In this document: in pieces, positions 5,968 to 8,583 of the stretch
Layout of the letters: each line of letters opens with the position of its first letter
Numbering within the stretch: position 1 is the first letter of the stretch
DNA from: a virus
Lineage: Duplodnaviria; Heunggongvirae; Uroviricota; Caudoviricetes
IMG/VR virus record: IMGVR_UViG_2740892230_000034
Length of the DNA stretch: 24,793 nt
Direction: 5' to 3' (one strand)
Position numbers and translations under genes: made by a program
The notes under the pieces: model-generated
Database searches by the model: none
What the model was told of the DNA's origin: nothing
What the model saw: the letters and a program-made list of their open reading frames with translations, nothing else

Positions 5968-6225
5968 ATGATGTACAGCAAATACGATGAGGCGCAGTTC
6001 CACTTGAGGCTTACGCACGAGTTGCACGCTAAGATTAAGCAGCGTGCAAAAATGAATAACAGGTCTATCAATTCCGAAATTGTGGCTACGATGGAAGAAT
6101 CACTCTCCAAACCATCACCTGTAAGCGGGTATCGTGATGAAGAAGAGAGGTTGGCCTCATTAATCTCGGAGCGAGTAAAAGAAGTTGCGGCTGATATCCT
6201 TAGAAAAGAAAAAACCCGCGATTAA
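5968..6225 (+). CDS. mnt: Mnt-like ribbon-helix-helix repressor (85 aa)
   Basis: MMYSKYDEAQFHLRLTHELHAKIKQRAKMNNRSINSEIVATMEESLSKPSPVSGYRDEEERLASLISERVKEV... The C-terminal half closely resembles what I recall of the P22 Mnt tetramerisation region (SKPSPVTGYRNDAERLADEQSELVKK). Shine-Dalgarno GGTGAGG lies upstream of ATG 5968. Confidence 0.75.
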   Translation: MMYSKYDEAQFHLRLTHELHAKIKQRAKMNNRSINSEIVATMEESLSKPSPVSGYRDEEERLASLISERVKEVAADILRKEKTRD

Positions 6226-6233
6226 GCGGGTTT
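6212..6233 (-). terminator. Intrinsic terminator ending the arc-ant operon (also the 3' hairpin of the plus-strand mnt-like gene)
   Basis: Stem AAACCCGC / GCGGGTTT with loop GATTAA. On the minus strand it is followed by TTTTTTCTTTTCT. Confidence 0.65.
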
Positions 6234-6239
6234 AGTTGG

Positions 6240-6461
6240 TTAGTTATCAAAAAGTCCGTACGTTTCTTCTTCTTCAGGTGTAAGGGGAAGAATCTCTACT
6301 CTATCTATAGATATCTTTTCAATGTACCCATGAGGTCTACTTAAAATTAAAGCTCTCTCATGCCACAGAACTCCAAGAATGTGATACCTTCCAGCATCGC
6401 CTTTTACCCTGGCTCTTCCTTTGATTCTTGGCGGCATAATGCCATATTTTTTCTTTGCCAT
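6240..6461 (-). CDS. Hypothetical protein (73 aa), translationally coupled to the upstream antirepressor-like gene
   Basis: ORF MAKKKYGIMPPRIKGRARVKGDAGRYHILGVLWHERALIL... Its ATG overlaps the stop of the upstream gene (TAATG at 6459-6463). Last gene before the terminator. Confidence 0.5.
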   Translation of the reverse strand: MAKKKYGIMPPRIKGRARVKGDAGRYHILGVLWHERALILSRPHGYIEKISIDRVEILPLTPEEEETYGLFDN

Positions 6462-7189
6462 TATGCAACATTACTCCCATGAATCAGGTGTTGTAGTGCT
6501 TTAACACCTTCCTCATTGTAGCGGAATGCTTCCACCTGTTTGCTGGAATGCGCAGATTTATCCAGGAAGAACTTCCCGTACTGCTCAGTTTTGAGGTTGT
6601 TTGCGTTAGCAATGCGACCAATCTTGTTGGCCGTTACTCCAAGCTGCTCTGCAACCTCCCCTGCTGAGTAGTAATGCTCTTCTATTGCTGGAAGAGGTAT
6701 TGCATTAAAACCAACGATCGGGTTGATTATGCTTGCTGCCGCAGTCTGCTTTGCTTCCGGCGCAAGATTTGGCATCAAATCGAACAGATTGGTAACAGCT
6801 TCAACCGTCATTTTCAATGTTCGCGCCTGGCGATACTCAACAAGTCCACTAGACGATTTACCGCTTTTAATGTGCGCTTCTTGCATACTTTCAAGTTGGT
6901 CTACAAGTGAGCGGCGAACAGCTTTAGATTCACGAGCAGCCACTCGAAGGGCTTGCTTAATTGACATAACAACTTTTTCAGAAGTTGTCTTGTTTGATTT
7001 TTGAACTACGAAAATTTCGTAGTGCTCACCTTCAAGTTCATCCTTAATGCGTGCAATAAAGTCGTTATTGCGGACTTCTTTTTCCCCGCACTGTCTACGA
7101 GCATGATTGACCATCTCTAACAGGTACTGGCTATCAATGGTTTTATCCGTGACAACGGATCCGATGTTTGCTACATTCTTAAAAGTCAT
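6461..7189 (-). CDS. Antirepressor-like protein with a KilAC-like C-terminal domain (242 aa from ATG 7189)
   Basis: Shine-Dalgarno AAGGAA 7 nt upstream of ATG at 7187-7189. The C-terminal YYSAGEVAEQLGVTANKIGRIANANNLKTEQYGKFFLDKSAHSSKQVEAF resembles the phage antirepressor KilAC domain. The ORF-track start at 7240 is probably an artefactual upstream extension. Confidence 0.6.
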   Translation of the reverse strand: MTFKNVANIGSVVTDKTIDSQYLLEMVNHARRQCGEKEVRNNDFIARIKDELEGEHYEIFVVQKSNKTTSEKVVMSIKQALRVAARESKAVRRSLVDQLESMQEAHIKSGKSSSGLVEYRQARTLKMTVEAVTNLFDLMPNLAPEAKQTAAASIINPIVGFNAIPLPAIEEHYYSAGEVAEQLGVTANKIGRIANANNLKTEQYGKFFLDKSAHSSKQVEAFRYNEEGVKALQHLIHGSNVA

Positions 7190-7259
7190 TAGGCATTCCT
7201 TATGTGGTAGTAAGGGTGTGACATAGGCCGCCAGCAGCACACTGGCGGTTTTCTTTTTG
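7167..7259 (+). ncRNA. Candidate sar-like antisense RNA 2 (promoter motif TTTGCTACATT plus intrinsic terminator), antisense to the start and RBS of the antirepressor-like gene at 6461-7189
   Basis: Extended -10-like TGcTACATT at 7169-7177. Plus-strand terminator with stem CCGCCAG (7228-7234) / CTGGCGG (7242-7248) followed directly by TTTTCTTTTT. Predicted RNA about 75 nt. Confidence 0.4.
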
Positions 7260-7277
7260 CGCCGTCCGGCGCACCAA

Positions 7278-7904
7278 TCAATGAATCCATTCCTCGCCGC
7301 GCAGTTTTGCCAGCATTGGCTGAGCGTTCTTTACGACAAAATTGTTGGTATCAAGATTCTTCATTTCACGAAGAAGTGATTTCTTGGTTTCTTCTGACAT
7401 GTAGCGAGTCTCATATGCAATATCGTAAATCCTTCCTGAAAGCTCAGAACCAATTTGCTTCATTCCTGGGTAGATGTGTTTGCACATTTGTTGACTCTTC
7501 TCCATCCACAATTGTAAGTAGCAGAGATTAACCAGTTCTTCGTCAGTAAACTGTTTTGCAATCGGTGAGCATTCTGCCTGCCGATCCAAAATATCCAGCA
7601 CCCAGCGGCGGAACTCTTTGGCTACCTGAGTGCGAGCAAACATCGCGATTAGGTGGGCACCGCGTAGTGAGAAAACACGCACTTTTTTACGATAATTTCC
7701 TGAGGTACTCACTTCGAGTACCTGAGTCATTCCGGCGCTAAACTCATCGCTATACTTGTTATAAATCATTGTTACTGCACGACTATTTGCGTATTTAAGT
7801 GCAGATGCAATATTAGATGATGTAAACCAAACACCATGCATATCACGGGTGGGCACCAATTCAACTCCGTGGAAGTTGTAATCTGATTTTGCTACAATAT
7901 TCAT
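7278..7904 (-). CDS. ant: Antirepressor (Ant-like), BRO-N-type N-terminal domain (209 aa from ATG 7904)
   Basis: Shine-Dalgarno AAGGAA 6 nt upstream of ATG (7902-7904). MNIVAKSDYNFHGVELVPTRDMHGVWFTSSNIASALKY fits the Bro-N/AntA pattern. Sits immediately downstream of arc, as in P22 immI. Confidence 0.7.
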   Translation of the reverse strand: MNIVAKSDYNFHGVELVPTRDMHGVWFTSSNIASALKYANSRAVTMIYNKYSDEFSAGMTQVLEVSTSGNYRKKVRVFSLRGAHLIAMFARTQVAKEFRRWVLDILDRQAECSPIAKQFTDEELVNLCYLQLWMEKSQQMCKHIYPGMKQIGSELSGRIYDIAYETRYMSEETKKSLLREMKNLDTNNFVVKNAQPMLAKLRGEEWIH

Positions 7905-7980
7905 GTTAGTTTCCTTGCATACGGTTACTGACATAGAGGCCCGGTTTGTGTTCACGCACTGCCGGGCTTCACTATTTTTA
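7890..7980 (+). ncRNA. sar: Candidate sar-like antisense RNA 1 (about 70 nt), antisense to the ant ribosome-binding site
   Basis: Extended -10 TGcTACAAT at 7890-7898 on the plus strand. An imperfect long hairpin (outer stem GCCCGG 7939-7944 / CCGGGC 7962-7967) is followed by TTCACTATTTTTA. The position in the arc-ant intercistronic region matches the P22 sar arrangement. Confidence 0.4.
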
Positions 7981-8151
7981 CTGGGCATTAGCTCTTTCCT
8001 CTCTCAGGCTTTTAGCCAGTCGCTGCACAATCGCAGAGTTGATAGAAATTCCATCCATTTCAGCAACACGTCTAATCTCCTCCTTCATTCGCGCTGGCAA
8101 ACGAAGCTGGAAACTTTGACTTTTACGACCTGTGTAAAGCACATCTTTCAT
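7978..8151 (-). CDS. arc: Arc-like ribbon-helix-helix repressor (57 aa)
   Basis: MKDVLYTGRKSQSFQLRLPARMKEEIRRVAEMDGISINSAIVQRLAKSL, an RHH fold pattern (beta strand FQLRLP then two helices). Shine-Dalgarno GGGAGA 7 nt upstream of ATG 8149-8151. First gene of the minus-strand arc-ant operon. Confidence 0.8.
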   Translation of the reverse strand: MKDVLYTGRKSQSFQLRLPARMKEEIRRVAEMDGISINSAIVQRLAKSLREERANAQ

Positions 8152-8262
8152 AAGTAATTCTCCCACAATGATACCAACTTGGTTCTAGAACCAATTTAAC
8201 ACCATTTATTTTGATGTCAAGTTGGTGCTATTGTTTAGCGAACATCTTTACGTTGAGGTCAT
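8152..8262. promoter_or_regulatory. Divergent promoter/operator region between arc and the mnt-like gene, with a 16-bp perfect palindrome
   Basis: TTGGTTCTAGAACCAA at 8179-8194 is a perfect palindrome. A second 8-bp inverted pair is CCAACTTG (8174-8181) / CAAGTTGG (8218-8225). Confidence 0.55.
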
Positions 8263-8583
8263 ATGAGCAAGTTCCCTAGTCATGAAATGGATAGGTTCAA
8301 TATCAGGCTTCCTGCAGGAATGCGGGATGCTATAGCTGAACGAGCCAAACGTAACGGCAGATCAATGAACTCAGAGATTGTTCAGATACTGGAAGATGCC
8401 TTGAATGCAGAAAATACACTCGGGGAAATAGCAGATAAAATCAACAGCGTCTCGGTTCCGCTAAATGTTGATGCGCTAGTTCAACTTCAAGCCCAGGTTA
8501 TCGCCATGCAAAAAGAAATACAGGAAAAGTTCAGAGAGCAGAACGAAAAGTTGAGAGAACTGCTAAACAAAAAAACCACCTGA
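8263..8583 (+). CDS. Mnt-like ribbon-helix-helix repressor with C-terminal coiled coil (106 aa)
   Basis: FNIRLPAGMRDAIAERAKRNGRSMNSEIVQILEDAL closely resembles the P22 Mnt DNA-binding domain as I recall it (FNFRMPMEVREKLKFRAEANGRSMNSELLQIVQDAL), and the protein ends KKTT. It is divergent from arc, which is the P22 mnt position. Confidence 0.8.
   Translation: MSKFPSHEMDRFNIRLPAGMRDAIAERAKRNGRSMNSEIVQILEDALNAENTLGEIADKINSVSVPLNVDALVQLQAQVIAMQKEIQEKFREQNEKLRELLNKKTT

Follow-up and report, generated by a model that had tools for sequence, protein, structure and literature searches.

The IMG/VR virus record IMGVR_UViG_2740892230_000034 is a stretch of 24,793 nucleotides (nt), here called the window, from the late region of a P22-like (Lederbergvirus-type) prophage of Escherichia coli 55989, with its map reversed relative to the usual P22 map. 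Positions 5700-8700 are 100% identical to 2,670,721-2,673,721 of the E. coli 55989 chromosome (NC_011748.1), and the combination found there occurs in 18 of 5,426 complete E. coli genomes at a coverage of at least 80%. We studied the region flanked by the homologues of genes 16 and 9 of P22, a slot published as the "ant moron" of P22-like phages, which is in rapid flux with ten types among sixteen genomes (Villafane et al. 2008, PMC2629481). The block in this slot is non-morphogenetic and holds ant together with genes for ribbon-helix-helix (RHH) repressors, and it is in this sense an immI region or ant moron of the P22 type. Two Mnt-like RHH genes flank an arc-ant operon, as a preliminary description of this DNA had stated, and a third RHH gene, arc-like, is the first gene of the operon. 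The two flanking open reading frames (ORFs), which we call mnt' (beside the tailspike gene) and mnt2, are supported by ORF calls and by the RefSeq annotation of E. coli 55989, where all three RHH genes are labelled "Arc family DNA-binding protein". The features are listed in Table 1.

Table 1. Features of the ant moron and its surroundings, in window positions.
Feature	Position	Strand	Basis or remark
Tailspike gene (homologue of P22 gene 9, head-binding N-terminal domain)	3856-5835	-	ORF; Prokaryotic Genome Annotation Pipeline (PGAP) "phage head-binding domain-containing protein"
Gene 9 leader, "boundary sequence" common to P22 and CUS-3	5836-5888		blastn to P22; within stretch annotated bsq1 in CUS-3
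Predicted mnt' operator, ATACC-GAAAT-GGTAC (ATACCGAAATGGTAC)	5894-5908		exact match to ATACC-N5-GGTAC
Weak mnt' promoter, TTGTTG-17-TACGAT	5911-5939	+	7/12 match to consensus
mnt' (84 aa; "type A" RHH N-domain; Mnt-type linker and C-terminal helix)	5971-6225	+	
Bidirectional terminator hairpin ending the ant operon, overlapping the mnt' stop codon	6212-6233		minus-strand scan: 8-bp stem and T-run
orf73, last gene of the ant operon (73 aa)	6240-6461	-	phrog_4977, E 1e-53; PGAP hypothetical
Antirepressor-like gene (242 aa)	6461-7189	-	phrog_1726 "anti-repressor", E 1e-100; PGAP start
Antirepressor Ant, Bro-N and P22_AR_C domains	7278-7904	-	Pfam; phrog_245 Ant, E 7e-53
Structured arc-ant junction, candidate non-homologous counterpart of sar	7898-7982	+	two hairpins, free energy (dG) -35.1, z -7.0
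Arc-like RHH gene (57 aa), first in the ant operon	7978-8151	-	Pfam Arc, E 1.1e-11; PGAP
Perfect 16-bp palindrome TTGGTTCTAGAACCAA over the ant promoter's -10/+1	8179-8194		predicted mnt2 operator
Strong ant-operon promoter, TTGACA-16-TAAATT with TG	8193-8220	-	10/12 match
mnt2 (106-aa RHH repressor, long C-terminal helix)	8263-8583	+	phrog_1287, E 3e-47
Block 97.3% identical in DNA to P22	8567-9273		blastn; last 17 nt of mnt2 (KKTT), orf59a, 121-aa ORF, sieA promoter region
Bidirectional terminator, stem CCACC-TGAC-GGTGG	8576-8589		terminator scan
orf59a	8682-8861	+	PGAP annotation
121-aa ORF	8875-9240	-	phrog_1365
75-aa membrane protein	9271-9498	+	phrog_7294
Gene 16 homologue	9495-11618	-	

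The mnt' gene is convergent with the ant operon and divergent from the tailspike gene. Its ORF had been given as 5968-6225; the gene is present, and its start is more likely 5971, which PGAP uses and which is the only ATG found in the relatives. Its product has a Pfam Arc domain (PF03869, E 4e-15) and falls over its full length (residues 1-84) into phrog_795, the Mnt family (E 2.3e-32). Residues 6-78 align with residues 3-75 of PDB entry 1MNT (E 2.9e-16), and the identity to P22 by tblastn is 46.6% over residues 7-79. The Mnt and Arc sequences of the P22 record were also aligned to both ORFs; mnt' matched Mnt over its full length, colinear through the SKPSPV linker and the C-terminal helix, with 15/40 residues (38%) identical in the N-domain and 18/32 (56%) in the C-domain, while mnt2 matched in the RHH core only. 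Judged by these alignments, mnt' encodes a full-length, genuine Mnt homologue that carries a different DNA-binding allele (QFHLRL).

The same Pfam domain is present in the mnt2 protein (E 1.6e-20), but its best PHROG, matched over the full length, is the phrog_1287 of Table 1. Its N-domain is identical to that of P22 Mnt at 20/36 positions (56%) and 53% identical to P22 Arc, and among solved structures the protein is closest to AmrZ (E 1.3e-8), with a weaker match to Mnt that covers the N-domain only (E 6.6e-8). The alignment to 1MNT is limited to residues 10-51 and the BLASTP match to Mnt to residues 12-48; beyond the RHH only the last residues match, and there is no colinear match to the linker and the C-terminal helix of Mnt. 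The mnt2 protein belongs to another RHH family, as close to Arc and AmrZ as to Mnt. Its NGRSMNSE stretch, taken earlier as a sign of Mnt, is a motif of the wider family. In a single-sequence AlphaFold model, used for secondary structure only because of its low overall confidence (mean predicted local distance difference test score, pLDDT, of 66), there are helices at residues 18-30 and 36-62 and one long helix at 69-105 (pLDDT about 80-85). The tail is in fact different from that of Mnt, as had been said, and the coiled coil proposed for it is compatible with this modelled helix, though not proved by it; such a coiled coil may mediate oligomerization.

The identities to P22 Mnt thus form the reciprocal numerical pattern noticed before, high at the N-terminal end in mnt2 and at the C-terminal end in mnt', and true chimeras are present in both families. 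Both facts favour the view that the two genes are reciprocally domain-shuffled Mnt paralogues which regulate one arc-ant operon through distinct operators. We nevertheless hold this to be very unlikely. The likeness of mnt' and mnt2 is at the family level, 38% identity over 45 residues within the RHH domain, and they sit in separate PHROGs (795 versus 1287). The body of mnt2 is that of proteins of Shiga toxin (Stx) phages (93% identity over residues 8-106) that have no Mnt-type tail. Shuffling of domains is real across phages and not between these two genes.

The shuffling across phages was seen when relatives of each gene were surveyed in IMG/VR, for mnt' the best 80 of 240 stretches encoding a relative, scored with a protein panel, and for mnt2 the best 80 of 253 relatives. 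In the Mnt family the N-domain is almost invariant, and the C-domain occurs in at least five versions, one of them near that of P22. ST64T-like N-domains occur on the C-domain type of the window too, and in one locus (L057) the N-domain DNA is 100% identical to that of the window while the C-domain is 55% identical. In raw counts of related loci, the C-domain type of the window (EEERLA...KEKTR) is accompanied by the downstream ant module in 54/57 loci, and the other C-domain types in 0/24. These data indicate that a mosaic joint runs through the SKPSPV linker of Mnt, and that the operator, the tailspike gene and the DNA-binding half move together and the C-terminal half goes with the downstream content. 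The mnt2 gene is a mosaic as well, with residues 1-21 and the whole intergenic region matching phage Oslo and residues 22-106 matching Stx phages. Four versions of arm and beta-strand (RFNIRL, KFNLRF, KFVVRF and KFTVRF) occur on an identical mnt2 body, and an RFNVRL N-domain is joined to at least six unrelated tails.

A third joint explains the KKTT end of mnt2, which the preliminary description counted as a likeness to Mnt. The match to P22 starts 17 nt before the mnt2 stop codon, with an A-run and the terminator stem. The Stx-phage homologues have the same joint and end in KKPT, and several otherwise unrelated tails in the mnt2 family end in KKPT or RKPT. KKTT is therefore not a conserved protein feature, because the last four residues are encoded by the shared terminator at a module joint, and this removes one further argument for shuffled paralogues. 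Identity of the DNA to P22 stops at 9273, just past the sieA promoter region. The 121-aa ORF inside the shared block has an HExxH-like motif (HECAH); it is intact in P22 (positions 2862-3227 of our P22 locus, L003), where it is unannotated in NC_002371, and it possibly corresponds to the "hkcC" that Villafane et al. mention.

The 135-bp spacer between the tailspike gene and mnt' (5836-5970) derives from the Pmnt/Pant control region of P22 fused to the gene 9 leader; tailspike N-terminus and leader together are 71.6% identical to P22 gene 9. The predicted operator of mnt' lies 59 bp upstream of the 5968 ATG and 62 bp from the 5971 start, and O_mnt of P22 ends 57 bp upstream of mnt. Across about 75 loci the arms of this palindrome are invariant and its five central bases vary (GAAAT, GAAAC, TAAAC, TAAAT or AAAAT), and it is kept in Serratia, Buttiauxella and Escherichia sp., where at least four genome loci were confirmed. 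An alignment of 57 distinct spacers showed, besides the invariant arms, conservation of the TTG of the -35, of the -10 TA(C/T)GAT with GCC, and of the ribosome-binding site. The geometry of the promoter is like that of P22 Pmnt, with the -35 abutting the operator. In loci with an N-domain of the P22/ST64T type, AGACCAC(A/G)GTGGTCT replaces the mnt' operator at the same place; the ST64T-like QFNLRL strand is paired with this sequence and HFNFRM of P22 with AGGTCCACGGTGGACCT. We assign the palindrome to mnt' because the operator type covaries with the N-domain type, which is the best available evidence for the pairing.

At the other end of the operon, the palindrome TTGGTTCTAGAACCAA at the ant promoter is unique in the window. 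It is kept together with a DRFN(I/V)RLP beta-strand, and other palindromes are found where arm and beta-strand differ, so that every arm version of mnt2 is paired with a separate palindrome, which lies some 85 bp upstream of the start (TTGGTTCTAGAACCAA, TTGGTGCCAA, GGCATTATGCC and AAGGCAAATTGCCTT). Operators thus covary with the beta-strand in both RHH families. The distinct specificities suggested earlier for the two repressors are consistent with this, given the strands QFHLRL in mnt' and RFNIRL in mnt2 and the different palindromes listed for them. The conserved palindromes and the predicted long C-terminal helix of mnt2 give sequence-level support to binding of a tetramer to a symmetric operator. 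Divergence from arc-ant with an operator at the ant promoter is a property of ORF 8263 and not of ORF 5971. The proposal that both repressors control one immI region fits poorly with this arrangement, since only mnt2 is at the strong ant promoter and mnt' is at the far end, convergent with the operon.

The survey of mnt' gives the same picture. In 78/80 loci mnt' lies directly against the tailspike gene, at its head-binding end, and is divergent from it, so that an mnt gene in this place, for which a survey of P22-like phages had been proposed, is common, and it has already been described. In 26/80 loci there is no arc or ant and nothing else between mnt' and gene 16 ("lone mnt"), which speaks both against joint control of one immI region and against shuffled paralogues serving one operon. 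About 30/80 loci have the full arrangement of the window, and the remaining loci have ant genes without mnt2. Phages JEP4 and VSe13 have near-identical mnt' genes next to the tailspike gene, Sf101 has a gene 63-65% identical to mnt' there, and in IME10 a relative is in the same interval, unannotated, with the same upstream sequence.

We consider it probable that 5836-8590 is a composite ant moron, made of two modules of different ancestry, each with its own RHH repressor and operator. The first module (8152-8583 and 6240-8151) would be a portable cassette of mnt2, the divergent arc-like gene, ant, the antirepressor-like gene and orf73. Its promoter (8220-8193) would read leftward into arc and ant, and transcription would stop at the terminator at 6233-6212. 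The mnt2 protein, probably oligomerized through its long C-terminal helix, would bind TTGGTTCTAGAACCAA over the -10/+1 region and silence the antirepressor in the lysogen, which is what Mnt does in P22, and the Arc-like protein would give feedback during infection. In its cassette mnt2 is most likely the functional counterpart of P22 Mnt. The second module (5889-6225) would be a "lone mnt" of the ST64T/L type, left by the tailspike gene after its own arc-ant was lost, and the binding site of the mnt' protein would be ATACC-N5-GGTAC, which lies directly upstream of the -35 in the weak promoter of mnt' itself. The most likely result is two independent switches, with mnt2 acting on the resident ant operon and mnt', an orphan of the ST64T/L type, beside its own promoter.

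Several observations weigh against this composite model. The palindrome at 8179-8194 covaries as a block with arc too and could be the site of the Arc-like protein instead of mnt2; covariation does not decide between the two proteins, since the mnt2 arm moves as a block with arc and the intergenic region. The mnt' promoter is weak by consensus, and an operator upstream of the -35 leaves the sign of any autoregulation by mnt' ambiguous. No cis target promoter of mnt' was found in a relaxed scan, in which the best candidate toward the tailspike gene reached 7/12, and the model leaves unexplained what purifying selection preserves in mnt'. In addition, ATACCAACTTGGTTC at 8171-8185, a short way downstream of the ant promoter, is a copy that differs from the mnt' operator pattern by a single mismatch. 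A copy so close to this promoter would suit two paralogues acting on the same operon, and 0.52 matches to the pattern are expected per window at up to one mismatch.

Cross-talk of mnt' with the ant promoter through this copy was considered and rejected. Its ATACC arm is GTGTC in close relatives that keep the main palindrome, and the site is unchanged in Oslo, where the cassette lies inside a tail-gene cluster. The site was assigned to the mnt2/arc module.

A different question is whether mnt' has a function at all, since it could be a decaying, functionless remnant of an old immI region, a possibility also raised in the preliminary description. Its arc-ant partners are gone, the counterpart of P22 Pant that faces the tailspike gene reads ATGGCA-17-CAAATC and has lost the consensus, and for phage L this option was left open (bioRxiv 10.1101/2020.10.05.325894). 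The conservation of the gene makes such decay most improbable. The ORF is intact in all 75 type-A loci examined. In the N-domain the ratio of nonsynonymous to synonymous polymorphism (pN/pS) is 0.07 over 33 distinct DNA sequences, with synonymous sites near saturation. Loci of E. coli, Salmonella, Serratia and Buttiauxella have kept the arms of the operator together with the ribosome-binding site, the -10 and the TTG of the -35. By these measures mnt' is not a remnant, its DNA-binding half and its operator being under strong purifying selection.

Such selection needs a reason, and mnt' may have a live role that does not involve the resident ant. One such role would be gating of tailspike expression, in which mnt' blocks transcription that comes into gene 9 from the ant operon or starts at a weak promoter that overlaps the operator; another would be action in trans, on antirepressor promoters carried by related incoming phages. 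In every locus 58 bp separate the operator from the tailspike start codon downstream of it, and the ant moron of P22 is thought to affect the number of transcripts reaching gene 9 (PMC2629481). However, no convincing sigma-70 promoter points toward gene 9, and none in this direction under the mnt' operator came out of the promoter scan. When IMG/VR was scanned for the exact operator, mnt' lay beside the match in at least 35 loci among the matches listed; of the other loci, at least 43, 42 were without a match to any ant-moron panel gene and one matched the tailspike N-terminus only. The panel held only three Ant types, and the scan is weak negative evidence on targets of mnt' beyond its own control region. 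We regard these roles as unlikely, and the composite model with two separate switches is preferred. Five of the IMG/VR loci with no ant-moron panel match (L175, L180, L203, L214 and L242) have two exact copies of ATACCGAAAYGGTAC 515 bp apart, which are probably a repeat inside some other phage element.

The immI region of the window follows the logic of P22 immI with different parts. Both lie between genes 16 and 9, and both have an RHH repressor gene divergent from an arc-ant operon, a strong ant promoter with a palindrome at its start site, and an ant operon that is terminated ahead of the tailspike gene; 97% identity in DNA holds over the segment that runs from the final 17 nt of mnt up to and including orf59a. 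The window differs from P22 in that the repressor at the mnt position (ORF 8263) has another tail and is of another family, that Ant is of the Bro-N/P22_AR_C type and followed by two extra genes, that there is no sar homologue, and that an additional true Mnt gene lies between the end of the operon and the tailspike gene.

The second module resembles the lone mnt beside the tailspike gene that was published for ST64T, ST104 and Para1 (PMC2629481) and for L (bioRxiv 10.1101/2020.10.05.325894). In the ST64T/ST104/L type, too, mnt diverges from the tailspike gene across about 135 bp, the gene 9 leader is the same, and a palindromic operator (AAGACCACGGTGGTCTT in ST64T) abuts the mnt promoter; comparison of the window spacer at 5836-5970 with that of ST64T places the window gene in this arrangement. 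ST64T has QFNLRL with AGACCACGGTGGTCT where the window has QFHLRL with ATACC-N5-GGTAC, and the window carries a complete foreign ant cassette downstream of the mnt gene. CUS-3 also has two Mnt-like RHH genes in one ant moron, one near P22 Mnt and one with a different tail, but there they stand in tandem on one side of ant, whereas in the window they flank the operon and face different intergenic regions.

The cassette of the first module is known from elsewhere. Its three-gene layout of an Arc-family gene, an Arc-like gene and Ant is shared with Stx2 phages such as WGPS6 and with ES18-like Salmonella phages (Oslo and SPN3UB), in which the mnt2/arc/ant cassette is located inside the tail-gene clusters of siphoviruses, among the tail genes in WGPS6 and Oslo. 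In the Stx version the arm, the beta-strand and the palindromes are different. Oslo shares with the window the first 21 residues of mnt2, the intergenic operator region and the Arc-like protein, which is nearly identical by eye, and differs in the tail of mnt2. In JEP4 (L001, 5651-6565) the same mnt', orf73, antirepressor-like gene and Ant are present, and the place of mnt2 is taken by a 189-aa "C2-like repressor" that diverges from a 57-aa gene, so that this close relative has its ant genes wired to a different repressor class.

Within the operon, 84 nt separate the arc stop codon from the ant ATG (7904), which is preceded by a Shine-Dalgarno sequence. This junction may be a counterpart of P22 sar without being homologous to it. 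On the plus strand there is a promoter-like site of the extended -10 type, its -10 being at 7893-7898, and one compensatory change (GCCCGG/CCGGGC to GCCCAG/CTGGGC) was seen in a stem among the relatives. No Rfam match to sar (RF00262) was found in 5600-9600 at E-values up to 1, in a search that scored sar of P22 itself, the positive control, at 97.8 bits. The junction is also open in frame with ant from an upstream ATG at 7988, and the translation from there resembles the N-terminal extensions annotated on Ant proteins of Stx phages and Oslo. The 242-aa antirepressor-like protein had no match in the Pfam search. An 80-nt piece of its gene (6962-7041) shares 77.5% identity with the P22 spacer that runs from the ant terminator to gene 9 (5070-5149 of L003) and appears to hold a relic of this gene, flanked by a direct repeat AAAATTCACCGTAGCCAYGCT.

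On both sides of the ant moron there are further accessory genes. A 640-aa acyltransferase-family gene (1863-3785, plus strand) immediately downstream of the tailspike gene is probably an O-antigen-modifying gene of lysogenic conversion, as in Sf101. The 75-aa protein has two hydrophobic stretches and occupies the position of the superinfection-exclusion gene sieA in P22.

The locus is a case of ordinary though instructive phage mosaicism, in which each module is of a kind already described, and the current understanding of immI control is unchanged by it. It extends by one the documented types of the fast-changing ant moron found in P22-like phages. The useful additions are the joints inside repressor genes, which were located in the inter-domain linker of Mnt, just after the beta-strand of the cassette repressor and in the terminator that encodes the last four residues, together with the pairs of operator and beta-strand and the selection on lone Mnt. 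It is also possible, though we suggest it only tentatively, that the type A allele of mnt' is a stand-alone regulator that selection has kept beside the tailspike gene in several genera, and that the natural chimeras form a series from which the code of RHH beta-strand/operator recognition can be read. Four arm/beta-strand versions on an identical mnt2 body and three N-domain alleles of Mnt, each with its own palindrome, make up this series, and such paired variants could serve for testing the rules of RHH recognition. For a large set of relatives, the purifying selection answers the published question of whether a lone mnt, such as that of L, is a remnant.

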